From Bacteroidales bacterium (GTDB lineage Bacteria; Bacteroidota; Bacteroidia; Bacteroidales; VadinHA17): 64,000 nt of DNA. A model generated the notes under the pieces. It was not told where the DNA came from, searched no databases, and saw nothing but the letters and a program-made list of their open reading frames with translations. This document shows positions 33,254 through 49,412 of this stretch, one piece after another (positions within the stretch are counted from its first letter, which is position 1; each line of letters starts with the position of its first letter). The stretch is from NCBI GenBank assembly GCA_034002885.1, contig JAVEZS010000004.1, positions 48,135-112,134 of the forward strand. The letters run 5' to 3'. The translations under genes were made by a program, and so were the position numbers.

Positions 33254-34612
33254 ATGAAAGCATCTAATTACATATTCGGAATTGCACTCTTCACTCTGGC
33301 CTCCTGCTCGTCAGGCCTTTATGTGGGAACTGAATATGATGACCTCTACTACCAGAGTACAGATCAGCCGGTAACAAGAGTTGCTTCACAGGGCAGCCGC
33401 CAGATGGCTGAAAGTGACCTTAGATCAGAAGCATATTATGACAACATATATGCAAAAGACACACTGGTATCAGATGAATATTCGGATGCTGTTGATTATG
33501 ACGATGCAAGAGAATACGATGATTATTACGGTTATTATGATAATTATTCCTATGCCGGAAGGCTGAACAGGTTTTATGGTAACTATTTCAACCCGTACTG
33601 GAGAGATCCGTTCTACTACAGCTGGTACCCCTCATTCAGGTTCAATAACTACTACGGAGGATTCCCATACTCATACTATGATCCTTTCTACTACGACTAC
33701 TACAGCCCTTATTCATATTATGATCCCTTCTACTCCGGAGGTTATTACGGAAGCTATTACGGAAGATATTACTACGGAGGCATGTATGGATATTATCCCT
33801 ACCATTACGGTTCCTACTACCATCCCTATACCTACAATTACAGGGACGGCTACAGTGCTGACTATGGACGAAGGGAGCGACCCAGCACACTTTCCACAAG
33901 ATGGCAGGGAGGATCTTCTTCAGCTGCTTCAGGAACGCCCTCGGCAACTGACGGATCGCGCAGGGTGACTGACCCGGCAACTGGATCAGCATCAGGGGCA
34001 GCCTCAGGAGCTGTACCATCCTCAAGACGCACTGCGGTTCAGCCAGGATCGCGTGAGACTGTATCGTCTGTCGGCAAGGAAGGAACACAGCAACCTGCCA
34101 GCAAGGGAACAGAGAGTGTTACAGGAACCCAGACCAGGAGGATCCCCGCTGCAACAAGACCTGAGTACAATTCTGTGAACAGAAGCTATACCCCCAGTTA
34201 TAACGATCCTAAAATGAGCACAAGGCCGTCATACAACAACACGAGGACCAATACCAACCAGGGTGTTGAAAGGAGAACCAACAGCGGCGTCAGCACGACA
34301 AGACCTTCGGTCATCCAGCGTATTCCCCAGAATTCAGGAACAGGCAGAAGCAGCTCTCCTTCCTATTCTGTACCCTCGCAGAACCGATCTAACTCCTCAT
34401 ACGGCGGTTCGGGTACCTACTCTGTTCCCTCATCGCGCAGAAGCTCCGGAACCGGTTATTCATCCGGCTCCTTCAGTGGTGGAAGCAGATCATCCATTGG
34501 CAGCGGATCTTCAGGATCTTATTCAGGTGGAGGCTCATATTCATCAGGATCATCTTCTTCCAGAAGCAGCGGTTCATCATCAGGCTCTTCTTCCGGAAGC
34601 AGAAGACCATAA
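33254..34612 (+). CDS. Tyr-rich / Ser-Gly-rich low-complexity lipoprotein
   Basis: Lipobox LASC (Cys18). An acidic Y/D segment is followed by an extreme Tyr/Pro/Gly core and a long S/T/G/R tail with [GS]Y[GS] repeats. It is the only frame giving a signal peptide and an uninterrupted 452-aa ORF. Confidence 0.7.
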   Translation: MKASNYIFGIALFTLASCSSGLYVGTEYDDLYYQSTDQPVTRVASQGSRQMAESDLRSEAYYDNIYAKDTLVSDEYSDAVDYDDAREYDDYYGYYDNYSYAGRLNRFYGNYFNPYWRDPFYYSWYPSFRFNNYYGGFPYSYYDPFYYDYYSPYSYYDPFYSGGYYGSYYGRYYYGGMYGYYPYHYGSYYHPYTYNYRDGYSADYGRRERPSTLSTRWQGGSSSAASGTPSATDGSRRVTDPATGSASGAASGAVPSSRRTAVQPGSRETVSSVGKEGTQQPASKGTESVTGTQTRRIPAATRPEYNSVNRSYTPSYNDPKMSTRPSYNNTRTNTNQGVERRTNSGVSTTRPSVIQRIPQNSGTGRSSSPSYSVPSQNRSNSSYGGSGTYSVPSSRRSSGTGYSSGSFSGGSRSSIGSGSSGSYSGGGSYSSGSSSSRSSGSSSGSSSGSRRP

Positions 34613-36270: not shown

Positions 36271-36879
36271 TCAAAGAAATGAACCGGCATCAGGTCCGGT
36301 AGTGAATATTAGGTCGATAATACTCAGATCAGGAACGAACGTACCCTGGTCAAAAACCTGTATATAAGGTTTTTGTTCCACCCCTGGTTTATTTCCCGGG
36401 GAGATTGTGTATCTGTAATCATTCGATGATGTTCCGTCGGGCGGTATAAAAGAAGAGGACGGATGGAATGACCTGTCGAGTCTGAGTATTTCAAGACATT
36501 TCTTTAAAAGTACTTCATTGAGGTCGACAAGGAACCTGAACTCCTTAGCTATTATCCTTATGAACTCATCCGAATAGAACTGGTAGAAGGGCGATCGCCC
36601 GTAGCATGAGGCAATGGCCCGCAGGTGTACCTGTTGCCAACGCTTCGAATAATCGATGGTAACATCTCTGACAGGAGCCTTCGTCCTGCCTCTCCTGGTA
36701 ACAGGGACACTTAGAATAAGAATTCCCTGAGGACCCAATATCCTGCATCTGTTCCTGTATGTCTGCCTGTTGTAATTCTCGTTATACTCCAGCAGAAAAG
36801 ATACGGAATTCAGGATACGGGAGAAATATTCTACAGGCGGAAGATAGGCCGTGGAAAGGAGTATCTGTTCTCCGTTCAT
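36271..36879 (-). CDS. WbqC-family protein (function unknown)
   Basis: N-terminus LLSTAYLPPVEYFSRI...YNRQTYRNRCRILGPQG matches my recollection of the WbqC-like family. Starts 10 nt after the larB stop. Confidence 0.75.
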   Translation of the reverse strand: MNGEQILLSTAYLPPVEYFSRILNSVSFLLEYNENYNRQTYRNRCRILGPQGILILSVPVTRRGRTKAPVRDVTIDYSKRWQQVHLRAIASCYGRSPFYQFYSDEFIRIIAKEFRFLVDLNEVLLKKCLEILRLDRSFHPSSSFIPPDGTSSNDYRYTISPGNKPGVEQKPYIQVFDQGTFVPDLSIIDLIFTTGPDAGSFL

Positions 36880-36889
36880 TTGCTGAGGT

Positions 36890-37636
36890 TCACTTCATCT
36901 GATTTATCATGCTTGCCGAAAAAGCGGCTCCAAATCCGTTGTCGATATTAACAACTGTTACTCCTGCCGAACAGCTTGTCAGCATTGCAAGAAGGGCTGA
37001 AATACCGCCGAAACTAGCTCCGTAGCCTACACTTGTGGGTACTGCAATCACAGGTTTATCAACGAGCCCTCCCACAACACTGGCCAGTGCTCCCTCCATA
37101 CCGGCAATAACTATGATCACACGGCATTTTCTTATTTCAGGAAGCTTTTCGACAAGGCGATGAATACCGGCCACACCGGCATCATATATCCTCAGTACTT
37201 CATTCCCAAGTAGTTCTGCAGTTACAGCTGCTTCCTCTGCAACCGGCATGTCTGATGTACCAGCTGTTATCACTGCAATTCGGGGTTTGGGTGCAGGTTT
37301 CTTCTTTTGAACACTTATTATCCTGGCAACAGCATAATATACTGCTGAAGGAACAAATTCCTTAACTGAATTGTACATCGCACCGTTGGCTCTGGTCCCG
37401 ATGACATTGTTCTCTCTTTCAGCCATCAGTCTGAATATACCGGCTACCTGTTCCTCCGTTTTTCCGGCACAGTACACTATTTCAGGATATCCTGTCCGTA
37501 GTTCCCTGTGATGGTCAATTTTTGCATAACCCAGATCAGTGAAGGGGAAATCCCTCAGCCTTTCAATAGTCTGGTCGATACTGATTTTCCCGCCTGTGAG
37601 CTCTTTCAGGAGCTTTTCTAATTCGCTTCGGGTCAT
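36890..37636 (-). CDS. larB: LarB, NPN-cofactor biosynthesis carboxylase/hydrolase (PurE-like)
   Basis: DHHRELRTGYPEIVYCAGKT followed by a PurE/AIR-carboxylase-like Rossmann domain (ITAGTSDMPVAEEA...GMEGALASVVGG). Confidence 0.88.
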   Translation of the reverse strand: MTRSELEKLLKELTGGKISIDQTIERLRDFPFTDLGYAKIDHHRELRTGYPEIVYCAGKTEEQVAGIFRLMAERENNVIGTRANGAMYNSVKEFVPSAVYYAVARIISVQKKKPAPKPRIAVITAGTSDMPVAEEAAVTAELLGNEVLRIYDAGVAGIHRLVEKLPEIRKCRVIIVIAGMEGALASVVGGLVDKPVIAVPTSVGYGASFGGISALLAMLTSCSAGVTVVNIDNGFGAAFSASMINQMK

Positions 37637-37644
37637 TATAATTC

Positions 37645-38436
37645 TTATTTTTCATTTAAACTACCTGAACGGTAACCTTCCAGATCCAGAGACACATATC
37701 TGAATCCTGTCTTTTTAAGGAAACTGTAAATCTCTTTTCTTTCTTCTGACTGAATAATTTTTTCGAAGTAAACTGGCAGGCATTCTATCCTGGCAATGTC
37801 GCCATGCAATCTTACCCTTGTTCCCGGATAACCTCTTTCAAAAAGATACTTCTCTGCCTTTTCAACCATGCAAAGCATACTCTCCTGAACCTTTGTGTCG
37901 TACGGGATTCTTGTAAGAAGACAGGACATCGCCGGTTTATCCCAGATCGAAAGTCCGTTCTGCCTTAGTATCTCCCTTATTTCCTTTTTTGTCAGACCGG
38001 CTTCCTGAAGCGGGCTCCTTATCCCAAGTTCGCGTAATGCCTTTATTCCTGGACGGTATTCACCAGTGTCGTCAGCGTTTGTTCCTTCAATCACGTGAAG
38101 ATACCCATTCTCTGCAGCATAGCGCTTTACTTCGGTAAAAAGGGTCTTCTTGCATATATAGCACCTTGATTCCGTATTATATCTTAATGAATCAGGGAAG
38201 TCAAGGTCAATAATACGATGCTTTATTCCGTACGCCTCTGCAAAAGCGGATGCTTCTTCTATTTCTGATGAAGGAATATACGGAGTCCGGATTGTTATAC
38301 CTGTGATATCGACTTTTTTCAGCCCGTGAGCCCTGTAAAGAAGAAATGAACTGTCGACGCCTCCGGAGAAGGCAACCACGAATGAACGAAGTTCGGTTAA
38401 AATACTGTCAAGTATGTCACTTTTTGTTTCAGCCAT
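37645..38436 (-). CDS. larE: LarE, ATP-dependent sulfur transferase of NPN biosynthesis (PP-loop)
   Basis: PP-loop AFSGGVDSS. Start set to the first ATG (38436), 2 nt after the larC stop; the ORF-track start is a TTG at 38457. Contains CYIC plus a downstream SC(L) cysteine. Confidence 0.85.
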   Translation of the reverse strand: MAETKSDILDSILTELRSFVVAFSGGVDSSFLLYRAHGLKKVDITGITIRTPYIPSSEIEEASAFAEAYGIKHRIIDLDFPDSLRYNTESRCYICKKTLFTEVKRYAAENGYLHVIEGTNADDTGEYRPGIKALRELGIRSPLQEAGLTKKEIREILRQNGLSIWDKPAMSCLLTRIPYDTKVQESMLCMVEKAEKYLFERGYPGTRVRLHGDIARIECLPVYFEKIIQSEERKEIYSFLKKTGFRYVSLDLEGYRSGSLNEK

Positions 38437-39616
38437 TTTTATTTTCCATTTTCGCAAGAAGCGATGTGACGAGTCCGTATATTTCCCTGACCGGCAAACC
38501 TTTCTCTGATGCTATTCGCCTGCAATCTTCATATTCGGGTTTGACTGAAACCTCACGTCCGTTAAAAAACGAGTGCTTAACCCTTACAGTACCGTATACC
38601 GTGTCGATCGTACTGAACTCCCGTTCAAGGGTGTCCTTTATAAATTCAAAGCTTCTTATTCCCAGTGTAGTTGATTCGGTAAACAGGATCTTTTTAAGCC
38701 TATCTTCTTTGCCTGGCTCACAGATGACGCTGAGAACCACTCCAGGTCTGCCTTTTTTCATAATGACCTGGGAGAGATATACATCTGAAGCGCCCTCGTT
38801 AAAAAGACGTTCGCTGATATGATCGTAAAACTCCGGGTTCATGTCATCAATGTTCGATTCAATAAGAAGAGCCTTGTGTCCGGTTTTTGCTTTCTCACCA
38901 GTCTCTCCCAGTGCAACCCTTAGAATGTTGGGCACATCGCGATTTTCCCTCTGGCCTATCCCATAGCCGGTCCTGCCAATCCTGACAGCACGCGGGGTTT
39001 CTGTTTCTGTTGCCAGCGTCGACAGGATTGCGGCACCTGTAGGTGTGGTCGCCTCAAATCCGACACCTCCTGTTCGCACACGCATACCTTTTACAATTTC
39101 GATAGTTGCAGGAGCCGGAACGGGAAGTCTCCCATGGTCGCAATCAACAAATCCGCTTCCGAGCTCCACTTCCGAGACAAAAACCTCATCAACCCCAAGA
39201 GCTTCATAACATATTGCGGCACCGGCAATGTCGATTATCGAATCAATAGCTCCAACCTCATGAAAATGAACCTTGTCGACAGATGTCCCGTGAACTTTCG
39301 CTTCGGCCTCTGCTATTTTCATGAATATCTTCATGCTGAGGTTCTTTACAGATTCCTTGAGCGATGACTTCCTTATTATCTCCTCTATATCGGAAAGATG
39401 CCTGTGATGATGTGAATGAACGGTCTGTTTCACTGTAACTTTTGTCCCTGTAATACCATGCCTCTGATCCTTTTCAACCGACAAATCCCAGCCCTCGAGA
39501 TTTAACTTTTCAAGTTCTGTTCTCAGGTAGGAAGCATCTATGCCCAGATCGATCATTGCTCCCAGATTCATGTCTCCGCTAATTCCAGAAAAACAATCGT
39601 AATAAAGTACTTTCAT
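38429..39616 (-). CDS. larC: LarC, nickel insertion (cyclometallase) protein, DUF111 family
   Basis: MKVLYYDCFSGISGDMNLGAMIDLG N-terminus and a His-rich HSHHHRH patch. It is a single unsplit polypeptide. Start trimmed to ATG 39616. Confidence 0.9.
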   Translation of the reverse strand: MKVLYYDCFSGISGDMNLGAMIDLGIDASYLRTELEKLNLEGWDLSVEKDQRHGITGTKVTVKQTVHSHHHRHLSDIEEIIRKSSLKESVKNLSMKIFMKIAEAEAKVHGTSVDKVHFHEVGAIDSIIDIAGAAICYEALGVDEVFVSEVELGSGFVDCDHGRLPVPAPATIEIVKGMRVRTGGVGFEATTPTGAAILSTLATETETPRAVRIGRTGYGIGQRENRDVPNILRVALGETGEKAKTGHKALLIESNIDDMNPEFYDHISERLFNEGASDVYLSQVIMKKGRPGVVLSVICEPGKEDRLKKILFTESTTLGIRSFEFIKDTLEREFSTIDTVYGTVRVKHSFFNGREVSVKPEYEDCRRIASEKGLPVREIYGLVTSLLAKMENKNG

Positions 39617-39740
39617 ATTCTGATGGTTTGAAATTATAAACAATAAATGCAGAACTAAGTTTAAAAACAGTCATTCTTATAAATCACCTGCTAAGATACA
39701 ATATACATTCATTGTGGTATAATTAAAAAAAAGTAGTATT

Positions 39741-39760
39741 TTTCGGTACTTTTCGGTAAA
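39741..39760 (+). repeat. Tandem 10-bp direct repeat TTTCGGTAct/TTTCGGTAaa upstream of the DUF362 gene
   Basis: Two helically phased copies of TTTCGGTA end 30 nt before ATG 39790. Each is preceded by TA, giving TAttTTTC and TActTTTC, which are near-matches to the TAnnTTTG -7 box. Confidence 0.6.
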
Positions 39761-39789
39761 GGTTTACTGAAAAACATACTCATCAGACG

Positions 39790-40710
39790 ATGAAAAGGAG
39801 AGATTTTTTCAAATCTTCAATTGGAGCGGGAATTGGTGCAGGAGCTGCTCTTAGTCTCGGAGGCTACAGTAATCTATGGGCTTCCGCACCGGGAAATGCG
39901 AAATACGACATGGTTGCAGTGATGGGAGGCAATCCTGATGCGATGTTTGACCTCGGAATTCAGGAACTTGGAGGAATGGGCGCTTTCGTCAACAAAGGCC
40001 AAAAGGTTCTGGTAAAGCCAAATATTGGCTGGGACGTGGTTCCTGAGCTCGCAGCAAATACAAATCCTCTTCTGGTAAAAAGAATTATAGAACATTGTTT
40101 CAGGGCCGGAGCAAAAGAAGTGTATGTCTTCGACCATACCTGCGACAACTGGATTAATTCATACAAGAACTCCGGAATAGAAAGAGCTGCAAAATCCGCG
40201 GGGGCAAAGGTCGTTCCTGCAAACACCGAAAATTATTATCAGGAAGTTGCAATTCCGGGAGGGGTAAAACTGAAAAAGGCAAAAGTCCACGAAATACTTC
40301 TTGAAGCAGATGTTTTTATTAATGTCCCAATTCTTAAAGATCATAATTCCACCAGAATGACCGCCTGCCTTAAGAACACCATGGGAGTAGTGTGGGACAG
40401 GGGATTCTGGCACTCAAATGACCTGCATCAGTGCATTGCCGATTATGCCCTCTTCGAGAGGAAACCTGAACTGAATATAGTTGATTGCTATAATGTCATG
40501 GTCAAACATGGTCCTCAGGGGGTCTCAAAGGAAGACGTGGTTCAGATGAAATCTCAGATACTGACTTCCGACTGGGTTGCCGGAGATACAGCTGCTGCAA
40601 AAATGCTGGGCGTTGATCCGCAAAGAATAGATTATCTGCCAATTGCAAGTAAGATGGGCCTGGGGAATATGAATCTTGACGCCCTGAATATTAAGAGGAT
40701 TAAAATGTAG
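39790..40710 (+). CDS. Tat-exported DUF362-family protein
   Basis: Twin-arginine signal MKRRDFFKSS...GGYSNLWA/SAP. The body carries VLVKPNIGW and ILKDHNSTRMTACLKNTMG motifs that I recognise as DUF362-like. Confidence 0.8.
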   Translation: MKRRDFFKSSIGAGIGAGAALSLGGYSNLWASAPGNAKYDMVAVMGGNPDAMFDLGIQELGGMGAFVNKGQKVLVKPNIGWDVVPELAANTNPLLVKRIIEHCFRAGAKEVYVFDHTCDNWINSYKNSGIERAAKSAGAKVVPANTENYYQEVAIPGGVKLKKAKVHEILLEADVFINVPILKDHNSTRMTACLKNTMGVVWDRGFWHSNDLHQCIADYALFERKPELNIVDCYNVMVKHGPQGVSKEDVVQMKSQILTSDWVAGDTAAAKMLGVDPQRIDYLPIASKMGLGNMNLDALNIKRIKM

Positions 40711-40716
40711 ACCATA

Positions 40717-42276
40717 ATGAGCTCTTCTTTTCTGCGAAAATTCAGGGTTGTCTTTTCGGCACTTGTATTTGTGTCTTTTTCCTTTGTCTTTATCGATTTT
40801 AAATCGCTCATTCCTGAAAAATATATCACTTACCTTATTTTTCTGCAGTTTATACCTTCTGCAATAAGTTATGTGAGTACCTTGTCGCTGGCAGCGACCG
40901 GTTTTATTATTGTTATTTTTTTAACACTGATTACAGGAAGAACATACTGTTCCTTCCTGTGTCCCCTGGGAATAGGGCAGGACATAAACAGCCGGATAGG
41001 GGGTAAGCTGAGAAAAAAGTTCAGGAGATTCGGCTTCAGAAAACCCCACACAATATTACGATATTCATTGCTGGTGCTTACACTGGGATCGGCTGTCTTC
41101 TATGGCATGTACATGGTGACATTACTGGATCCGTACAGCATCTTTGGCCGTTTTATGACATTTTTTGCCAAACCGGTTGTACTTGTCATAAATAATCTGT
41201 TTTCAGGTGTACTGGGGAAGTTTGATGTTTATGCATTGCATCATGTCGAAATAAAGGGATTTGACCTGATTACTTACGCATTGCCTCTGATTTTTGCCCT
41301 TCTCGTCGGATTGCTTTCATTTACAAAAGGCCGGCTCTATTGTAATATGATATGTCCTGTAGGAACCTTTCTGGGGCTGATTTCAAAGGTATCGCTGTTT
41401 CGAATAAGGATTGATGAAGGAAAATGCACGCGCTGCGGAAGATGCGCGCTGGCTTGCAAATCATCATGCATTGACTTTCTGGGTCAGGATATCGATCTCA
41501 GCAGATGTGTAGACTGTTTCAACTGCATACCTTCATGCCCCGAAAATGCAATAACATACTCTTTTGTCGGATCGTCCGGACGAGAAAAGGAAGCGGATAA
41601 GAGCAAGAGAAAATTCATTGCCGGCTCGCTTCTCTTTCTTGCCGGAGTTTCGCAATCTGCAAATTCGCAGGAGAAGAATGTGCCTGTTCCGAAGAAAGCC
41701 TCAACTGTAAGAGAGCCGCGAACATATCATGTCTGCCCGCCAGGAGCAGTATCGATAAGTGATTTCATGAAGAATTGTACCGCCTGTTCGCTCTGCATAA
41801 CCGCGTGCCCGAACCAGGTGATCAAACCGGCTGTTAAACAATATGGGATTGCCGGATTTATGATGCCTGTAATGGATTACCACCTTAGCTTCTGTACCTT
41901 CAACTGTACAGTGTGCACTGAAGTATGTCCCACGAATGCCCTTAAACCGCTGGTTCTTGAAGCTAAAAAGCTGACGCAGATCGGAAAAGTCAATTTCATC
42001 AAGGATAATTGCATTGTAAAAACGGAGAAAACAGCATGCGGAGCCTGCTCTGAAGCATGCCCCACAAAGGCAGTATTTATGATCCCCTACGAAGGTAACC
42101 TTCTGATTCCCGAAACGAATCAGGAAATCTGCATAGGATGCGGACATTGTGAATATGCATGCCCTGTGACCCCCTACAAAGCAATTTTTGTGGATGGAAA
42201 TCCCGTGCACCAGGCAGCTAAAAAACCGGAAGTCAAAGAACCGGAAGTTACGACGCCTGTCGACTTTCCTTTTTGA
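40717..42276 (+). CDS. Integral-membrane polyferredoxin (NapH/NosR-like 4Fe-4S binding protein)
   Basis: Multiple N-terminal TM helices with CSFLCPLG and CNMICPVG motifs. Six ferredoxin-type CxxCxxCxxxC(P) motifs: CTRCGRCALAC, CVDCFNCIPSCP, CTACSLCITACP, CTVCTEVCP, CGACSEACP, CIGCGHCEYACP. Confidence 0.85.
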   Translation: MSSSFLRKFRVVFSALVFVSFSFVFIDFKSLIPEKYITYLIFLQFIPSAISYVSTLSLAATGFIIVIFLTLITGRTYCSFLCPLGIGQDINSRIGGKLRKKFRRFGFRKPHTILRYSLLVLTLGSAVFYGMYMVTLLDPYSIFGRFMTFFAKPVVLVINNLFSGVLGKFDVYALHHVEIKGFDLITYALPLIFALLVGLLSFTKGRLYCNMICPVGTFLGLISKVSLFRIRIDEGKCTRCGRCALACKSSCIDFLGQDIDLSRCVDCFNCIPSCPENAITYSFVGSSGREKEADKSKRKFIAGSLLFLAGVSQSANSQEKNVPVPKKASTVREPRTYHVCPPGAVSISDFMKNCTACSLCITACPNQVIKPAVKQYGIAGFMMPVMDYHLSFCTFNCTVCTEVCPTNALKPLVLEAKKLTQIGKVNFIKDNCIVKTEKTACGACSEACPTKAVFMIPYEGNLLIPETNQEICIGCGHCEYACPVTPYKAIFVDGNPVHQAAKKPEVKEPEVTTPVDFPF

Positions 42277-42377: not shown

Positions 42378-42791
42378 ATGATGAAACCATCACATATTGA
42401 ACATATTGGAATAGCAGTCGGGAACCTTGAAGAATCCATAGCCTTTTATGAAAAGGTTTTCGGACTGAAATGCTACAATATCGAAGAAGTGACTGACCAG
42501 AAAGTAAGAACAGCATTTTTTATGGTCGGACAGACAAAGATTGAACTACTCGAACCCATTGACCAGGAAAGCCCTATTGCCAGATTTATTGAAAAACGGG
42601 GTGAGGGGATTCACCATATAGCTTTTGCAGTAAGTGATGTGACTGAACATCTGAAACATGCCGGAAAAGAAGGTGTAAAACTTATTGACGCCGAACCACG
42701 AAAAGGTGCGGAAGGTCTTAACATTGCCTTTCTGCATCCCAGGTCAACAGGCGGGGTGCTTATTGAATTATGCGGGAATCCTCAAAAATAA
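42378..42791 (+). CDS. mce: Methylmalonyl-CoA epimerase (VOC/glyoxalase fold)
   Basis: IEHIGIAV...IELLEP...GEGIHHIAFAV...GVLIEL pattern of methylmalonyl-CoA epimerases. Lies directly upstream of the mmd genes. Confidence 0.85.
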   Translation: MMKPSHIEHIGIAVGNLEESIAFYEKVFGLKCYNIEEVTDQKVRTAFFMVGQTKIELLEPIDQESPIARFIEKRGEGIHHIAFAVSDVTEHLKHAGKEGVKLIDAEPRKGAEGLNIAFLHPRSTGGVLIELCGNPQK

Positions 42792-42809
42792 AGCAATAAT
42801 CCATTTTAC

Positions 42810-44369
42810 ATGAACAACCAGGAAAAAGTAAAGGAACTCATTGACCTTCGCGACAAAGCCCGCCAGGGAGGAGGAGAAAAACGAATTGAAGATCAGCATG
42901 CCAAAGGTAAGCTTACTGCAAGGGAAAGACTTAATATACTGCTTGATGAAGGAAGCTTCGAAGAGTACGATATGTTCGTTACCCACAGGACCGAAGATTT
43001 CGGCCTCGGGAATAAAAAGTTCCTTTCCGATGGTGTTGTTACGGGACATGGGACAATAGACGGAAGGGTTGTCTATGTTTTTTCCCAGGATTTTACTGTT
43101 TTCGGAGGATCTCTTTCTGAGACCTTCGCCCAGAAGATTTGTAAAATAATGGACCAGGCAATGAAGACGGGAGCGCCGATAATCGGTATAAACGACAGCG
43201 GTGGAGCCCGAATTCAGGAAGGGGTGAGAAGCCTTGCAGGTTATGCAGAGATTTTCGAACGAAACATTCTTTCGTCAGGAGTGATACCACAGATCTCTGC
43301 GATTTTCGGACCATGCGCCGGCGGAGCTGTATATTCTCCGGCCCTTACCGACTTCATTATTATGAGTGAGAAAAGCAGCTATATGTTCGTAACCGGCCCG
43401 AAAGTGACCAAGTCAGTTACGGGGGAAGATATTTCTACCGAGAATCTGGGAGGGGCTCAGATCCACGGAGTTAAATCGGGGGTTGCTCATTTTGTTGTAG
43501 ACGAGGAAACCGAGGGGCTGCTCCTGATACGAAAACTGTTAAGCTATCTTCCTCAGAATAATCTTGAGGATCCGCCAATGACTGAATGCACCGATCCCAT
43601 CGAAAGACTGGAGGATGACCTGAATTCCATTATTCCTGAAAATCCCAATCAGCCTTACGACATAAAGGATGTTGTCTATAAGATAGTCGATCATAGTGAA
43701 TTTCTGGAGGTTCACGCCGGTTATGCCCGTAATATAGTTGTGGGATTCGCCAAAATGGGAGGCATGCCTGTGGGAATAGTTGCCAACCAGCCTAGTTTTC
43801 TTGCCGGGGTCCTTGATATAGAAGCATCGCGTAAAGCAGCACGTTTTGTCAGATTCTGCGACGCTTTCAATATACCGATTGTAACCCTTGTGGATGTCCC
43901 GGGCTTTCTTCCCGGAAGCGGACAGGAATATGGAGGAATAATAATTCATGGTGCCAAACTGATGTTCGCCTATGGCGAGGCAACAGTACCAAAAATAACA
44001 GTTACTCTGAGAAAATCCTATGGAGGAGCTCACTGTGTAATGTCATCAAAACAACTGAGGGGAGATATTAATTACGCCTGGCCTTCGGCAGAGATCGCCG
44101 TTATGGGTCCTTCAGGAGCAATTGAGATACTTGAAGGAAGAAATATCAGCGAAATAAGCGATCCCGAAAAGAAGGCAAGGTATGTTGCGGAAAAGGAAGC
44201 TGAATACAGAACTAAGTTCGCAAATCCATACGAAGCTGCAAGGTATGGATATATTGACGATGTAATCGAGCCACGCAATACTCGTTTCAGGATTATCAGG
44301 GCTTTGAGGACATTTGCTACAAAAAAGGATCCCGGACCTATGAAAAAACATGCAAATATACCTCTATAG
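42810..44369 (+). CDS. mmdA: Methylmalonyl-CoA decarboxylase alpha subunit (carboxyltransferase; PccB family)
   Basis: 519 aa. [20 protein letters not shown] and [12 protein letters not shown] are acyl-CoA carboxyltransferase signatures. Confidence 0.88.
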
Positions 44370-44372
44370 CAA

Positions 44373-44744
44373 ATGGTTCATTATTATCTTTTTTCAGCGA
44401 TTGTTGATCTCTCGGCTATAGACAATACGGCTGCCACGATCGTTTTTACAGGGATCTCCATCGTGTTCCTTTCCCTGGCCCTCATCTATCTTCTGTTTCG
44501 TTACCTGCTACCCTTGATACTGAGATCGATTACAACACGTAAGCTGAAAAAAGAGGGCATCCGGGAGATACCACCCGGGATGAAAGAAATTCCGGGAGAC
44601 GTTACGGCAGCCATAGCCATGGCGATTATTCTGAACAGCGAGGAGATGCACGACGAGGAAAGCAGAATAATTACAATAACCCGTGTTTCGCGAATTTACT
44701 CTCCCTGGAGCTCAAAGTTATACAGTATGAGAAACTTAAGATAG
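44373..44744 (+). CDS. OadG-family small membrane subunit of the Na+-translocating decarboxylase
   Basis: 123 aa with a single N-terminal TM helix (IVFTGISIVFLSLALIYLLF). Position between the alpha and biotin-carrier subunits. Confidence 0.65.
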   Translation: MVHYYLFSAIVDLSAIDNTAATIVFTGISIVFLSLALIYLLFRYLLPLILRSITTRKLKKEGIREIPPGMKEIPGDVTAAIAMAIILNSEEMHDEESRIITITRVSRIYSPWSSKLYSMRNLR

Positions 44745-44748
44745 TGTC

Positions 44749-45168
44749 ATGAAGAATTATAAATTCATTATAAACGGGAACCAGTATGAGGTTGAAATAC
44801 AATCCCTGGAAAGTGATCATGCCAGGATTGAAGTAAACGGAACCACATATTCGGTGGATATTCTCAGGGAGAAACGACAGGTAAAAACCCCGGTTATCGT
44901 GAGGTCCCCCGTGAAGGAGCCTCCAAAACGAATTGAAAAGAAAGAAGGAGGACCAAGAACGGCTGTAAGAACACCTCTTCCAGGAATAATACTGAATATC
45001 TATGTAAAAGCAGGTGATACTGTCACAAAAAACCAGAAGCTTTTCAGCCTTGAGGCTATGAAAATGGAAAATGAAATCAAAGCTGAACAGGACGGGACGA
45101 TTGTTGCAGTGAAAGCTGAAATAGGCCAGTCGGTGCTTCAGGAGGAAGTAATTATGGAGATGGACTGA
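44749..45168 (+). CDS. mmdC: Biotin carboxyl carrier subunit of methylmalonyl-CoA decarboxylase
   Basis: C-terminal biotinyl domain with the EAMKMENEI biotinylation motif. Confidence 0.88.
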   Translation: MKNYKFIINGNQYEVEIQSLESDHARIEVNGTTYSVDILREKRQVKTPVIVRSPVKEPPKRIEKKEGGPRTAVRTPLPGIILNIYVKAGDTVTKNQKLFSLEAMKMENEIKAEQDGTIVAVKAEIGQSVLQEEVIMEMD

Positions 45169-45170
45169 TC

Positions 45171-46523
45171 ATGGAGAAGAAAAGACTTATAGTTGTTTTT
45201 TGCGCAGTGGCCATTCTATCGGTTGCCTGGTCTGTGTTCATTAAACCCGAAAAAGAAAGACAAGCAGAATATGCATCATGGCATGCTTCGGCTGACGGTA
45301 TTAATAATTTCAGAGGAAGTATTGAAGAGGACGAACCGGAATCGCTGAGCGGATTAAGACAGTTCTGGAATTATACGGGGTTCAGGAATGCCACAAGCGG
45401 CCATCTGATAATGATCGTCATAGGTCTGTTTTTTATCTATCTGGCGATAAGATACGATTATGAGCCTTTACTACTTGTTCCTATTGGCGCAGGAATACTT
45501 ATTGGCAATATTCCTTTCTTTCAGGACGGGGGATTGAACCTGCAGGTCGGTATTTATCAGGAAGGCAGTGTGTTGAATTACCTTTACTTCGGGGTGGTAA
45601 AGGGTATTTACCCTCCCCTTATTTTTCTGGGGCTGGGTGCCATGACCGATTTCTCCTCACTTATTTCAAGCCCGCGGCTAATGTTGCTGGGTGCAGCTGC
45701 ACAGATAGGGATCTTCATTACTTTTATTGGCGCACTCGCCCTTGGTTTCTATCCACAGGAAGCTGGTGCAATAGGAATAATCGGAGGAGCCGACGGTCCC
45801 ACAGCCATATTTCTTTCATCAAGGCTTGCAAATGGAATAAACATTCTGCCGGACGGAACGACCGTAAAAAATCTAATAGGACCCATCGCAATTGCAGCTT
45901 ATTCCTACATGGCCCTAGTTCCGGTCATACAGCCGCCTGTTATGAGACTGCTCACAACAAGGAAAGAGAGACGCATCAGGATGAAACCGCCCAGAGCCGT
46001 ATCAAAAATCGAAAAGATAGTCTTTCCCATAGTAGGGCTTCTTGTTACACTTTTTATTGCACCCAGTGCCCTTCCTCTTCTTGGTATGCTGTTTTTTGGC
46101 AACCTTCTTCGTGAATCCGGTGTTACAAAACGACTTGCTGACACTGCAAGGAATGCCCTTATTGATATTGTTACAATCCTCATAGGATTAACAGTTGGGG
46201 CTTCTACTCAGGCTGATGTTTTTCTTACCCGAAGTTCCATAATGATCTTTGCCCTCGGAGCATTCTCATTTGTTATCGCGACGGCAGGAGGTGTCCTCTT
46301 TGCTAAATTCATGAATCTGTTTCTCAGGGAAGAGAACAAGGTTAACCCCCTGGTCGGGGCAGCAGGGGTTTCAGCGGTTCCCGACAGCGCAAGGGTTGTA
46401 CATGTGGAAGGACTAAAGGCCGATCCCTCAAATTATCTGCTTATGCACGCAATGACCCCGAACGTATCCGGTGTGATCGGTTCCGCTGTTGCAGCAGGTA
46501 TACTGCTTGGTTTCCTGGGTTAA
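45171..46523 (+). CDS. mmdB: Na+-translocating decarboxylase beta subunit (OadB/MmdB family)
   Basis: Polytopic membrane protein; EPLLLVPIGAGILIGNIP and GAADGPTAIF-like motifs. Carries an N-terminal extension of about 60 aa with an extra TM segment. Confidence 0.88.
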   Translation: MEKKRLIVVFCAVAILSVAWSVFIKPEKERQAEYASWHASADGINNFRGSIEEDEPESLSGLRQFWNYTGFRNATSGHLIMIVIGLFFIYLAIRYDYEPLLLVPIGAGILIGNIPFFQDGGLNLQVGIYQEGSVLNYLYFGVVKGIYPPLIFLGLGAMTDFSSLISSPRLMLLGAAAQIGIFITFIGALALGFYPQEAGAIGIIGGADGPTAIFLSSRLANGINILPDGTTVKNLIGPIAIAAYSYMALVPVIQPPVMRLLTTRKERRIRMKPPRAVSKIEKIVFPIVGLLVTLFIAPSALPLLGMLFFGNLLRESGVTKRLADTARNALIDIVTILIGLTVGASTQADVFLTRSSIMIFALGAFSFVIATAGGVLFAKFMNLFLREENKVNPLVGAAGVSAVPDSARVVHVEGLKADPSNYLLMHAMTPNVSGVIGSAVAAGILLGFLG

Positions 46524-46551
46524 GCCGGATAATTCACATTGCTAAGTATTT

Positions 46552-46582
46552 TTTGACTTATTATTAATTACTTTTAGTTTTG
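46552..46582 (+). promoter_or_regulatory. Candidate internal promoter (TTTG-N19-TAGTTTTG) in front of the citrate lyase genes
   Basis: -33 TTTG at 46552-46555 and -7 TAGTTTTG at 46575-46582 with an exact 19-nt spacer. Lies 25 nt upstream of ATG 46607. Confidence 0.45.
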
Positions 46583-46606
46583 TGTTTTTTAACCAACTTT
46601 GTGAAA

Positions 46607-47845
46607 ATGAGCAGAAAATTAGCAATTGTTGGAAACTCAGGACCAAAGATCAGATCTGATTGTCAGATTGAACTTGAGATTTGTGCGACCGGTGGCCTGA
46701 AGACAGAACTGTTTTCTAAAGTCGGAGTCCTTTATGGTGAATCAATAAGGGAGCAGTGCATTTCACAACTTGAGTTTTTTGGAATCAGTAATGCCATCCT
46801 CAGAATCAACGATTCGGGAGCTTTGCCTTTTGTCATGGCAGCCAGGCTGGAAGCAGCTATCAAAAAAATCGTACAGACAGATCTTGAGTTTCTTCCCGGT
46901 ATGAGTGACGAAAACATGTATCCATCAAGGAGGGACCGTTTCAGGTTTGCCCGGCTCTATGTGCCAGGAAATACTCCGAGCATGATGATCAATGCGGGAC
47001 TTCATTCAGCCGATGGAATAATTCTGGATCTTGAAGATTCGGTTGCTCCTGAGAAAAAGGACGAAGCCGTTCTGCTTGTCAGAAATGCTCTGAGACAGAT
47101 CAGTTTTAACGGAGCGGAAAGAATGGTAAGAATAAACCAGGGAGAGCGAGGGATGAACGACCTTGAAGCCGTTGTACCTCAAAATGTACATTTGATTCTC
47201 ATCCCGAAATGTGAAAGCGTTTCTTCTGTAACAGGCGTCGATGACAGGATAAAAGAGATAAAAAAACGCAACGGTAATGCTAACCAGGTTTTTCTGATGC
47301 CAATCATAGAAACCGCACTTGGTGTCGAAATGGCATTCGATATAGCACGCTCCACGCCTTCAGTCGTTGCATTGGCTGTCGGACTTGAAGATCTTACCGC
47401 TGATATGGGCGTCGTAAGGACAAGGGAAGGCAGGGAGACTTTCTACGCCAGGACACGTGTGGTTAACGCTGCCAGGGCTGCAGGAATCCAGGCTATCGAT
47501 TCGGTCTTTTCCGATGTGGGCGATATGGATGCCCTCAGGCAAACCGTAAGGGAATCAAAAGCACTTGGCTTTGAAGGAATGGGTTGCATACATCCGCGGC
47601 AGGTACCTGTTGTGAAAAAAGGCTTTGCTCCGGAAACTGCGGAGATAGAAAGATCAAAGAAGATTGTCCTTGCCTATGAGGAAGCAAGGTTAAAGGGAGA
47701 AGGTGTAGTGGCTCTTGGAACAAAAATGATTGATGCACCTGTTGTCAGGAGAGCTCTCAGGGTGATTGAGCTTTCAGTTAAGCTGGGACTTCTGTCCGAT
47801 AACTGGATGGAACTTCAGGAGGAAAACAAGAAACAGACCGGTTAA
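46607..47845 (+). CDS. Fused citrate lyase acyl-carrier protein (CitD-like, about the first 95 aa) and citrate lyase beta subunit (CitE, citryl-ACP lyase)
   Basis: The N-terminus (…IRSDCQIELE…RINDSGALPFVMAARLEAAIKK) resembles CitD. The remainder (LYVPGNTPSMM…DGIILDLEDSVAP…ERMVRIN…DLEAVVP) is CitE/HpcH-like. Start set to ATG 46607; the ORF-track start is a TTG at 46580. Confidence 0.78.
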   Translation: MSRKLAIVGNSGPKIRSDCQIELEICATGGLKTELFSKVGVLYGESIREQCISQLEFFGISNAILRINDSGALPFVMAARLEAAIKKIVQTDLEFLPGMSDENMYPSRRDRFRFARLYVPGNTPSMMINAGLHSADGIILDLEDSVAPEKKDEAVLLVRNALRQISFNGAERMVRINQGERGMNDLEAVVPQNVHLILIPKCESVSSVTGVDDRIKEIKKRNGNANQVFLMPIIETALGVEMAFDIARSTPSVVALAVGLEDLTADMGVVRTREGRETFYARTRVVNAARAAGIQAIDSVFSDVGDMDALRQTVRESKALGFEGMGCIHPRQVPVVKKGFAPETAEIERSKKIVLAYEEARLKGEGVVALGTKMIDAPVVRRALRVIELSVKLGLLSDNWMELQEENKKQTG

Positions 47846-47855
47846 AATTACAAAA

Positions 47856-49412
47856 ATGACTATTCATACTGTAAAAAACAGTGCCGGCAGATCGGTACCT
47901 TCCGAAATAAACGGAAAACCCGAAGTTCCTTTCCGGGGTGTGGGAAAGCATAAACCCGCCGGGTATAAATACGCTCCTCCAATACCTTCTTGCTCTGATT
48001 ATCCTGACGACGGCAACAAGGTCGTTGCTACCCTCGAAGAAGCTCTTCTTCGTTGCGGTATCCGCGACGGAATGACGATATCAACCCACCACCACCTGCG
48101 TGACGGAGACCTCATCAGCAACAGGATCTTTGAAATAGCTTCGGTGATGGGAGTCAGGGATCTCGTATGGTTTCCGTCAGCCTCATTCCCCTGCAATGAA
48201 CCTTTGATAAAGTATCTCGGGGATGGGACGATAAACAGGATAGAAGGCAGTATGAACGGGCCTCTTGGCCGCTTTGTCTCCGAAGGCAGAATGAATGGCA
48301 CAGCCGTTCTGCGTTCACACGGAGGAAGAGTACAAGCCATTCAGGATGGAGAGGTAAAAATCGATATTGCGGTACTGGTTGCTCCATCAGCAGATTCTTT
48401 CGGTAACGCAAGGGGTAGGGGAGGCCAGTCAGCCTGCGGTGTGCTTGGCTATGCAAAAGCAGATGCATTGTATGCCGATAAGGTGATTGTCGTTACTGAT
48501 AATCTTGTCGATCTGCCATGCCTTCCAATGGAGATAGAAGGAAACTATGTCGATTATGTTGTGGTTGTTGATAAAATAGGTATTCCCGAAAGGATAGTAT
48601 CAGGAACAACACAGATCACAAAAAGTCCCGACAGGCTTCTTATAGCGGAGCTGACAGCATCGTTTCTCGAGAAATCCGGAATACTGAAAGATGGAATCTC
48701 ATTACAGGCAGGAGCAGGCGGCACCTCACTGGCAATTGCCGTTTTCATTCATGAGATAATGAAAAGCAAGGGATGGAAATCAAGATTCGGCTTTGGCGGA
48801 AGCACGAGATATATGGTCGATATGCTTGAGCAGGGGCAAATGGACTATATACTAGATGCCCAGGTCTTTGACCTTGACTCGGTCGATTCACTTGGCAGGA
48901 ATCCCAACCATGTGCCTTATTCTGTATTCAATGCATATAATTATCACTCAAAGGGCAACCTGACCAGCATGATGGATATTATGATCCTTGGAGCGACCGA
49001 GGTTGACCTGAATTTCAATGGAAATGTGGTAACCCATTCCGACGGTTACCTTCTTCACGGAATAGGGGGCTGGCAGAACTGTCTTCACGCCAGGAACGTA
49101 ATCCTTCCGCTGCCTCTTTTCCGCGACCGGATACCTGTTATCGTCGACGAGGTGACAACCCTGTGCGGCCCCGGAGAAATGATCGATGTGATAATAACAG
49201 AAAGGGGAATTGCAGTTAATCCGCTGAGGCAGGATCTTATTGACAGAGTTAAAAACAGCGGACTTCCGTTAAAAACGATATACGAACTCAAGAATGAAGC
49301 CGAGAGAATATGCGGAAAGCCTTCAAAACCCGTTTTCGATGATAAAATGGTCGCAGCAGTAAAATGGGTCGATGGTACTGTTATTGACGTGGTGAGAAAG
49401 ATAAGGAACTAA
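47856..49412 (+). CDS. citF: Citrate lyase alpha subunit (citrate CoA/ACP-transferase)
   Basis: About 518 aa. The family-typical N-terminus (NSAGRSVPSEINGK…) and overall length fit CitF. Start trimmed to ATG 47856, 10 nt after the citDE stop. Confidence 0.85.
   Translation: MTIHTVKNSAGRSVPSEINGKPEVPFRGVGKHKPAGYKYAPPIPSCSDYPDDGNKVVATLEEALLRCGIRDGMTISTHHHLRDGDLISNRIFEIASVMGVRDLVWFPSASFPCNEPLIKYLGDGTINRIEGSMNGPLGRFVSEGRMNGTAVLRSHGGRVQAIQDGEVKIDIAVLVAPSADSFGNARGRGGQSACGVLGYAKADALYADKVIVVTDNLVDLPCLPMEIEGNYVDYVVVVDKIGIPERIVSGTTQITKSPDRLLIAELTASFLEKSGILKDGISLQAGAGGTSLAIAVFIHEIMKSKGWKSRFGFGGSTRYMVDMLEQGQMDYILDAQVFDLDSVDSLGRNPNHVPYSVFNAYNYHSKGNLTSMMDIMILGATEVDLNFNGNVVTHSDGYLLHGIGGWQNCLHARNVILPLPLFRDRIPVIVDEVTTLCGPGEMIDVIITERGIAVNPLRQDLIDRVKNSGLPLKTIYELKNEAERICGKPSKPVFDDKMVAAVKWVDGTVIDVVRKIRN

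Follow-up and report, generated by a model that had tools for sequence, protein, structure and literature searches.

A Tat-signal DUF362 protein with a modeled LarA fold faces a nickel-pincer cofactor operon in Bacteroidales and is a candidate for a periplasmic, quinone-linked redox enzyme

We analyzed a 64-kb stretch of the genome of an uncultured Bacteroidales bacterium (assembly GCA_034002885.1, contig JAVEZS010000004.1, positions 48,135 to 112,134), referred to here as the window, in which six open reading frames (ORFs) form the locus larC-larE-larB-wbqC // DUF362-polyferredoxin. The lar genes belong to the biosynthesis of the nickel-pincer nucleotide (NPN), the cofactor of the LarA enzymes, and the two divergent genes code for a DUF362 family protein with a twin-arginine translocation (Tat) signal and for a membrane polyferredoxin. 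In its structural model the DUF362 protein has the LarA fold and is a short member of the LarA superfamily. The best-supported single model of the locus, to which we give a probability of about 0.45, is that it is a Tat-exported, NPN-loaded relative of LarA that works as a quinone-linked periplasmic dehydrogenase or reductase. The first-pass annotation of this DNA had proposed that the DUF362/polyferredoxin pair receives the NPN made next door. The fold, the aligned Lys and His residues, and a separate link in Streptomyces-type clusters speak for this claim, while the restriction of the adjacency to one clade, 13 lineages without lar genes nearby, and one genome with the pair but without LarC speak against it, so that the earlier interpretation is partly supported overall and the link of the pair to NPN is not proven.

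The AlphaFold model was built from a 101-sequence alignment of diverse homologs and reached a predicted local distance difference test score (pLDDT) of 94 and a predicted template modeling score (pTM) of 0.87, with low pLDDT in the signal-peptide region (a single-sequence model gave a pLDDT of only 37). When this model was compared with the PDB by Foldseek, the top 19 matches were all LarA-family structures (5HUQ, 6C1W, 8EZH, 2YJG, 9EIA, 9Q3J/K, 4NAR, and Mar2), with E values of 1.6e-6 to 2.4e-4, a probability of 1.00, and query TM-scores of 0.37 to 0.52 over 191 to 293 aligned columns; the matches that follow are generic Rossmann-type folds with E values of >1e-3. Whether DUF362 is related to LarA in fold had been left as a question, and these matches answer it affirmatively. 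The relation is already implicit in Pfam, where DUF362 and LarA_N (DUF2088) share clan CL0471, on which grounds DUF362 has served as the outgroup of a LarA tree (PMC11770544). The family (COG2006) is large, with about 5,000 cluster representatives at 50% identity and E values of up to 0.001 to the window query. The closest NCBIfam model to the window protein is NF052623, "Npun_F2552 family" (61 bits, far under its cut-off of 500), a name that we take to be a Nostoc punctiforme locus tag.

In L. plantarum LarA, Lys184 tethers NPN, His200 coordinates nickel, and His108 and His174 are catalytic. For a Lys/His pocket of this kind, which had been suggested as the feature to look for, the window protein has candidate residues: Lys195 and His185 align with Lys184 and His174, whereas His108, Arg75, Gln295, and Lys298 of LarA are without conserved counterparts. 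The pairing comes from a weak hhalign alignment (E value, 0.073), and His208, 13 residues past Lys195, lies beyond its aligned part; LarA has His200 at +16, and cytoplasmic DUF362 proteins have a His at +15. From His to Lys, the distance is +10 both in LarA and in all four DUF362 proteins compared (those of the window, Streptomyces, a soil contig, and Subdoligranulum), and the conserved His after the Lys is found at +13 to +15 in DUF362 proteins versus +16 in LarA. The corresponding motifs read KDH-NSTRMTACL-K-NTMGVVWDRGFW-H in the window, KTH-VMTGMSCAV-K-NLFGTVPGLQKAEF-H in Subdoligranulum, and RTH-SSVVFTNAM-K-NLVGLLPGLTTRIV-H in Streptomyces. The candidate site of the window protein comprises Asn78, Lys183, His185, Lys195, and His208. 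Lys183, His185, Lys195, and His208 occur together in 106 of 118 diverse Tat-type representatives (Lys195 in about 92%), and the 11 to 12 exceptions lose two to four site residues at once, usually together with Asn78, while keeping other residues of the fold. Such a correlated loss is expected of a single functional site. Judging from their sequences, the Tat-signal paralogs without the site (P0144, P0147, P0163, P0186, P0188, P0195, P0209, P0210, and P0228) look degenerate and are possibly noncatalytic. A different oddity is a homolog of 342 amino acids (aa) (L095:2576-3604) that contains a 30-residue internal duplication, either an assembly artifact or a recent tandem duplication.

The twin-arginine signal claimed for the DUF362 protein is real, and its RR motif is a trait of the family, seen in 113 representatives of a diverse set of 150. 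Neither a Cys-cluster motif nor a redox-cofactor motif is present in the protein itself, and the conservation of a Tat signal in spite of the missing Cys-cluster motif points to a cofactor that is loaded in the cytoplasm. Fusions of DUF362 with ferredoxin domains, also part of the earlier claims, do exist: the Subdoligranulum protein is fused to 2x[4Fe-4S] domains, which supports an exchange of electrons between the DUF362 site and Fe-S clusters.

The strongest argument that some DUF362 proteins are NPN clients comes from clusters in which a DUF362 protein is the sole member of the LarA superfamily. A tblastn search of plasmid records with the window DUF362 protein matched three records, one of them a Streptomyces megaplasmid with LarC 6 kb away. 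In this plasmid, a Cyclase-DUF362 unit (the DUF362 protein has 418 aa and no Tat signal) is divergent from genes for a DAHP synthase, a chorismate-binding enzyme, LarE, LarB, and LarC. With this single Streptomyces DUF362 protein as the query, a metagenome scan retrieved 32 soil contigs (39 to 74% identity), 11 of which have lar genes beside Cyclase-DUF362. Nine of these carry a chorismate-binding gene and LarE downstream, and six of the nine carry LarB and LarC as well; the remaining two are a contig with LarE about 6 kb off and a short one with a LarE fragment upstream. We found no LarA match in any of these contigs. In contig L117, which was examined gene by gene, Cyclase, DUF362, a TrpE-like protein, a glutamine amidotransferase, LarE, LarB, and a TauD-like protein are encoded one after another with overlapping stop and start codons, and LarC is convergent. 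The recurrent cluster, with a putative cyclase and with TrpE-like and TrpG-like proteins, resembles a pathway of chorismate-derived secondary metabolism in which an NPN enzyme is required. The in-operon arrangement of DUF362 with larE and larB is an independent link between DUF362 and NPN, and co-location with lar genes is found in two unrelated lineages. The recurrent cluster lies at L117:5158-13656 and L099:8275-16380 and also in L107, L110, L112, L114, L115, L118, L121, L129, L131, and L133.

The N-terminal half of the polyferredoxin has the layout of NapH (four hydropathy peaks for transmembrane helices and two motifs each of the CX3CP and Fe-S kinds), and the C-terminal half is NapG/NapF-like, with a Lys/Arg-rich segment followed by four cluster motifs, two of which are variants (motif residues 78-85, 209-216, 237-274, 296-301, 354-364, 393-405, 432-449, and 472-482). 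Of the six CxxCxxCxxxC(P) motifs that had been ascribed to the protein, four are canonical and the other two are the variants CxxxCxxCxxxCP and Cx8CxxCxxxCP. The scores against the Nap models are all below the cut-offs (TIGR02163 NapH/MauN, 100 versus 213 bits; NF007013, 88 versus 234; NapG NF007012, 52 versus 269). Within the chain, a twin-arginine-like motif (SKRKFI in the window; RRNFL, SRRTFL, SRRGFI, and KRRFL in outgroups) is followed by a mildly hydrophobic stretch, and we predict that it is the Tat signal of NapG retained as an internal anchor, which would give the four-cluster domain a periplasmic location. A parallel to such an anchor is found in actinobacterial Rieske proteins, with their dual Sec/Tat insertion. 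Together, the polyferredoxin and the DUF362 protein are predicted to form a periplasmic, quinone-linked redox module. The C-terminal end of the polyferredoxin, (D/E)F(P/G)F (42262-42273), is common to homologs from Bacteroidota, Ignavibacteriota, and unnamed contigs.

The operon larC-larE-larB is a complete set of genes for NPN biosynthesis. All six ORFs are where the first-pass annotation had placed them, with their families backed by Pfam and NCBIfam scores (Table 1), and the spacings hold as well: larC and larE overlap by 8 nucleotides (nt), 8 nt separate larE from larB and 10 nt separate larB from wbqC, the divergent spacer between larC and the DUF362 gene has 173 bp, and the gap between the DUF362 and polyferredoxin genes is 6 nt. 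LarC matches the equivalog models of both of its parts (LarC1, TIGR00299, 220 bits versus 90; LarC2, NF052512, 147 bits versus 50) and contains the His-rich stretch HSHHHRH. LarE has the SGGVDS PP-loop together with Cys92, Cys95, and Cys172, and as these match the ligands of the [4Fe-4S] cluster in Thermotoga LarE (PMC9283937), we assign it to the catalytic and not to the sacrificial type.

The absence of LarA from the 64 kb was borne out by searches of the window: tblastn with four diverse LarA proteins (26 to 35% mutual identity) gave no match, and neither LarA_N nor an aldo-keto reductase or ornithine cyclodeaminase turned up in Pfam scans of the un-nested ORFs of at least 200 aa and of a 137-aa glyoxalase ORF. 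That many genomes carry larBCE without larA also agrees with the literature, in which the figure is about 15% of the genomes analyzed, most cyanobacteria included (PMC11796402). The view of NPN as a cofactor of LarA alone is, on the other hand, outdated, as NphT, with an aldo-keto reductase fold, and an ornithine cyclodeaminase are now known as clients; NphT was reported in 2026 by mining the genes that adjoin larBCE in larA-less clusters (PMC13524815). The main text of that paper makes no mention of DUF362, and among the papers that could be searched we found no proposal that DUF362 binds NPN; its sole appearance there in this connection is as the outgroup of the LarA tree. The published NphT-type arrangement can be seen on a Clostridium butyricum megaplasmid (L082:7253-13862), where larB-larC-larE is followed by energy-coupling factor (ECF)/CbiQ-type transporter genes and then by an aldo-keto reductase gene.

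The neighborhood was followed in 80 species-level genomes retrieved with the DUF362 protein (77 to 94% identity), all from uncultured Bacteroidales of digesters, fens, and lake sediment. In all 80, wbqC-larB-(larE)-larC faces DUF362-polyferredoxin wherever the contig flank allows, and within the block conservation is highest for the DUF362 protein, with an identity on a par with that of prolyl-tRNA synthetase (ProRS). Outside this clade we compared 13 other lineages (Prolixibacter, Rosettibacter, Tenuifilaceae, Ignavibacteriae, a further Bacteroidetes metagenome-assembled genome [MAG], Parabacteroides distasonis, Gemmatimonadota, the planctomycete Fontivita, KSB1, and four contigs or MAGs without a phylum-level name), and the DUF362 gene stands beside a gene for a homologous polyferredoxin (460 to 575 aa) in every one of them (13/13). 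This constant partnership suggests net redox chemistry and not racemization, which is also favored by the fact that only one of the two catalytic histidines of LarA has a counterpart in DUF362.

In the model that we prefer, NPN would be made in the cytoplasm by LarB, LarE, and LarC and joined to the DUF362 precursor at Lys195, or bound there, with His208 binding the nickel and His185 acting as the acid/base. The folded holoprotein would be exported by Tat and would dock in the periplasm on the four-cluster ferredoxin domain, itself placed outside by way of the internal twin-arginine anchor. There, its substrate for oxidation or reduction may be a compound with a hydroxy or carbonyl group (a hydroxy acid or a sugar, perhaps), and the Fe-S chain would carry the electrons to the menaquinone pool or away from it. 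For this module we infer the binding of NPN and the export, as well as the topology, the flow of electrons, and the substrate. Weak hints of the substrate are the fusions of DUF362 with CBM9 and dockerin from lignocellulose enrichments (PMC5742341) and an aldose-1-epimerase gene near the pair of P. distasonis.

Several observations weigh against this model, and many of them fit a different reading, in which the two units are neighbors by chance, the pair is a periplasmic oxidoreductase in its own right whose conserved Asn/Lys/His/Lys/His site binds something different from NPN (for example, a metal ion loaded in the cytoplasm, or the substrate alone), and the lar genes serve a client elsewhere in the genome (a LarA homolog, an NphT-type aldo-keto reductase, an ornithine cyclodeaminase, or another enzyme). 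We regard such a coincidence as a serious possibility, at somewhat less than even odds. At the profile level, the link to LarA is weak: neither phmmer nor an hmmsearch with the 101-sequence profile against PDB sequences reaches a LarA chain, the protein has no PF09861 match, and the hhalign probability is <1%. Among solved structures, only those of the LarA family match the model significantly. Within the site, no His is conserved in the region of LarA His108 (position 116 varies among His, Arg, and Asn, and position 119 has Asn or Asp), Thr, Pro, Ala, and Arg all occur where Arg75 is aligned, and the segment bearing Gln295 and Lys298 has no counterpart in a protein of 306 aa, about 120 shorter than LarA with about 424. 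The Lys-to-His loop of the Tat subfamily is shorter, too, and lacks the PG of LarA and of the cytoplasmic DUF362 proteins. The many conserved Asp, Asn, and His residues of DUF362 could form a metal site, although a chance adjacency leaves the aligned Lys/His pattern, with its LarA-like His-to-Lys spacing, to be explained. We know of no precedent for a transfer of hydride from NPN to one-electron Fe-S carriers without a flavin. As to gene neighborhood, the linkage to lar is kept throughout the clade of the window, but no lar gene lies within 10 kb of the pair in any of the 13 other lineages, so that the DUF362/polyferredoxin module is ancient and obligate and the lar neighborhood is not. ProRS and a FadL-like gene, both unrelated, are also syntenic in this clade, for which reason the lar adjacency counts as roughly one evolutionary event, probably one in a single syntenic Bacteroidales clade. 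Against a mere coincidence stand the distant DUF362 subfamily inside larA-less larE-larB operons and the lack of any other known type of NPN client in the 64 kb.

Two further cases bear on the same question. In 12 of 74 sister loci (L014, L068, L015, L030, L033, L043, L045, L047, L049, L057, L067, and L070), larE is gone from between intact larB and larC genes and the DUF362 protein is still 78 to 86% identical, without signs of relaxation; larB is full-length in the 12 loci examined, with no in-frame stop in the alignments. C-terminal remnants of larE survive in two of them (L014:8373-8588 and L068:8464-8562), which indicates an in situ deletion of the gene, perhaps on more than one occasion. 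These species would have to possess a second larE elsewhere or be able to dispense with the pathway, with DUF362 strongly conserved all the same. The other case is P. distasonis TSDC17.2-1.1, which is present in PLSDB as many records labeled "plasmid." The genome seems well covered, as the housekeeping markers ProRS, phosphoenolpyruvate carboxykinase (PEPCK), PurA, and pyruvate kinase were all found in these records (4/4), as was the Tat-DUF362/polyferredoxin pair with its site residues intact. The LarC search of the plasmid records gave no Parabacteroides match, in a split assembly of unchecked completeness, and no P. distasonis LarB or LarE was among the matches listed. A LarC from the Bacteroidales would be expected among the best matches, and its absence from this many-record assembly is suggestive, though not conclusive, evidence against extending the link with NPN to the protein of the window.

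Two other readings assign the key role to a different protein. It is improbable, in our judgment, that the DUF362 protein is noncatalytic, either as an accessory or maturation factor or as a redox-inactive partner of the polyferredoxin, with another periplasmic protein doing the chemistry. The protein lacks a redox-cofactor motif, its degenerate paralogs keep their Tat signals, and a flavin adenine dinucleotide (FAD)-dependent oxidoreductase gene separates the two genes in one lineage; but a passive role fits poorly with the highest conservation of the block (77 to 94% identity), with site residues retained in 106 of 118 representatives, and with fusions to ferredoxin and to CBM9 and dockerin (PMC5742341) that look like enzymes. 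Less probable still is that WbqC is an NPN client or a fourth biosynthetic enzyme and that the DUF362 pair is unrelated. The wbqC gene does follow the operon after 10 nt, as had been claimed, and is kept after larB in 72 of 80 related loci, yet it is the least conserved gene of the block (45 to 76% identity), and in P. distasonis and B. finegoldii the genes of the WbqC homologs (about 35% identical) come after dapB and a pair of genes for signal peptidases, without lar genes in the vicinity. These dapB-signal peptidase-lepB units, at whose end the homologs lie, are at L137:1979-5621 and L138:1631-5630 (Parabacteroides and Bacteroides); in the clade of the window, the gene has been joined to the lar operon instead. 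Likewise, no WbqC-family gene is found among the genes scanned in the lar clusters of Streptomyces and related soil contigs, and WbqC has no solved structural relative by sequence. We rejected WbqC as an NPN client or accessory because of its dapB-lepB context in other genera, and it is a general Bacteroidales gene and probably a passenger here, not specific to NPN.

Table 1 Features of the lar/DUF362 locus, with positions in the 64-kb window
Feature	Position	Strand	Basis
WbqC-family gene, last gene of the lar transcription unit	36271-36879	-	PF08889, 128 bits
larB, nicotinic acid adenine dinucleotide (NaAD) carboxylase/hydrolase of NPN biosynthesis	36890-37636	-	NF033503 equivalog, 298 bits versus cut-off of 175
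larE, ATP-dependent sulfur transferase, [4Fe-4S] CXXC-C type	37645-38436	-	TIGR00268, 294 bits versus cut-off of 150
larC, CTP-dependent nickel insertase (cyclometallase), LarC1 and LarC2 fused	38429-39616	-	PF01969, 503 bits
Conserved element of about 57 nt in the divergent spacer	39690-39746	no strand	Near-invariance across 15 species
Tat-signal DUF362 protein, 306 aa	39790-40710	+	PF04015, 158.5 bits versus gathering score of 24, model 1-200/200
Twin-arginine signal peptide of the DUF362 protein	39790-39888	+	MKRRDFFKSS...LWASA: RR motif, hydrophobic region, AxA-type end
Membrane polyferredoxin, 519 aa	40717-42276	+	Fer4_5 twice, several Fer4 families, sub-cut-off NapH/NapF/NapG-like matches
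Internal twin-arginine-like motif SKRKFI of the polyferredoxin	41602-41619	+	S-[KR]-R-x-F-[LI] kept at this position

In the divergent spacer, the conserved element is nearly invariant in 15 species while its flanks vary, and in the window the direct repeat TTTTCGGTA occurs twice at its 3' edge. The region is presumed to be a back-to-back promoter/operator, and the invariance of the element is compatible with a shared regulation of both units, without being proof of it. Rfam identified no riboswitch or other RNA family in the window or the spacer, and a sigma-70 promoter scan stayed at background (15 matches versus 12.9 expected) with a model that is not informative for Bacteroidota.

In other lineages, the surroundings of the pair differ. 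One has a gene for an FAD-dependent oxidoreductase (PF01266) between the DUF362 and polyferredoxin genes (L141:10001-13844), a protein that could serve as a converter from two-electron to one-electron transfer. In four others, a small, very hydrophobic protein (149 to 177 aa; homologous among the four) is encoded divergently upstream of DUF362, at L093:9378-9911, L096:9374-9874, L097:9323-9772, and L098:9400-9900, each on the minus strand. It occupies the position that the lar operon has in the window, where it is not found, and it has no family match, with an ECF S-component (E value, 0.07) as the sole hint.

The other genes of the window are housekeeping genes, coding for PEPCK, pyruvate phosphate dikinase (PPDK), pyruvate kinase, ProRS, TilS, chorismate synthase, a methylmalonyl-CoA decarboxylase operon, and citrate lyase. 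Downstream of the polyferredoxin (42378-49412), we found a gene for a methylmalonyl-CoA epimerase-like glyoxalase protein, followed by the operon of a methylmalonyl-CoA decarboxylase of the sodium-pump type and citrate lyase subunits; among these, only the epimerase gene is widely syntenic with the DUF362/polyferredoxin pair (72 of 80 loci). Last, an ORF of 452 aa (33254-34612) is extremely rich in Tyr, Ser, and Gly, of low complexity, and lipoprotein-like at its N terminus. It adjoins a gene for a FadL/TodX-like outer-membrane protein, and its conservation in related loci is patchy.

The search for the missing clients of NPN is an active field, with two new client families reported in 2025-2026. 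Beyond this locus, we consider it possible, though less likely than not, that the LarA-like nickel-pincer enzymes have in DUF362 a second branch, which carries out net redox chemistry in place of racemization and exchanges electrons with Fe-S clusters, and that the Tat subfamily with its fused NapH-NapG polyferredoxin is the first periplasmic, quinone-linked NPN enzyme. Such a branch could account for some of the larBCE-positive, larA-negative genomes, possibly including cyanobacteria, a case to which we are led by the Nostoc-derived name of the closest NCBIfam model. If DUF362 binds NPN, one of the larger domains still without a known function would gain a cofactor, and NPN chemistry would extend from cytoplasmic hydride shuttling to extracytoplasmic, membrane-linked electron transport. 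Organometallic nickel-carbon chemistry would then interface with Fe-S chains, and a widespread two-gene module of anaerobes, that of gut Parabacteroides included, would obtain a function. In relation to the literature that we searched, the conserved Lys/His site with its correlated loss, the in-operon DUF362-larE-larB arrangement of the Streptomyces-type clusters, the obligate partnership of Tat-DUF362 with a NapH-NapG fusion, and the internal Tat motif are probably unpublished.

Among the known systems, the closest is LarA itself (for example, L. plantarum LarA, 5HUQ), with which the DUF362 protein shares the modeled fold, the Pfam clan, by a weak alignment, the His-x9-Lys motif with a later His, and a position next to larB, larC, and larE. 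It differs in its smaller size, in going unseen by LarA sequence models, in the missing equivalents of His108, Arg75, Gln295, and Lys298, in the Tat signal that predicts a periplasmic location, and in always being partnered with a membrane polyferredoxin. NphT and the ornithine cyclodeaminase are comparable in the way they were found, as candidate clients encoded beside larBCE in larA-less clusters with a Lys/His pair as the signature, but they have unrelated folds (a TIM barrel and the ornithine cyclodeaminase fold), are cytoplasmic, and have no Fe-S partner. The cytoplasmic DUF362 proteins of the Streptomyces type belong to the same Pfam family as the window protein, with the same Lys/His/Lys/His motif and with lar genes in the absence of LarA; in contrast, they are only 24% identical to it, have no Tat signal and no polyferredoxin partner, carry about 110 extra C-terminal residues that contain Cys, and sit in a putative secondary-metabolite cluster. 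With NapGH (and NosGH and MauMN), the likeness is in the architecture of the partner, NapH-like in its N-terminal half and NapG-like in the C-terminal half behind a twin-arginine-type motif, and, by prediction, in that a catalytic subunit exported by Tat is combined with a quinol module of Fe-S type in the membrane. In the window, however, both proteins are fused into one chain that scores under the curated cut-offs, and a DUF362 protein takes the place of the molybdo- or copper enzyme as their partner. Should the model be confirmed, the module would be a variant of the LarA-type NPN enzymes that is new in its location and in the way it transfers electrons.

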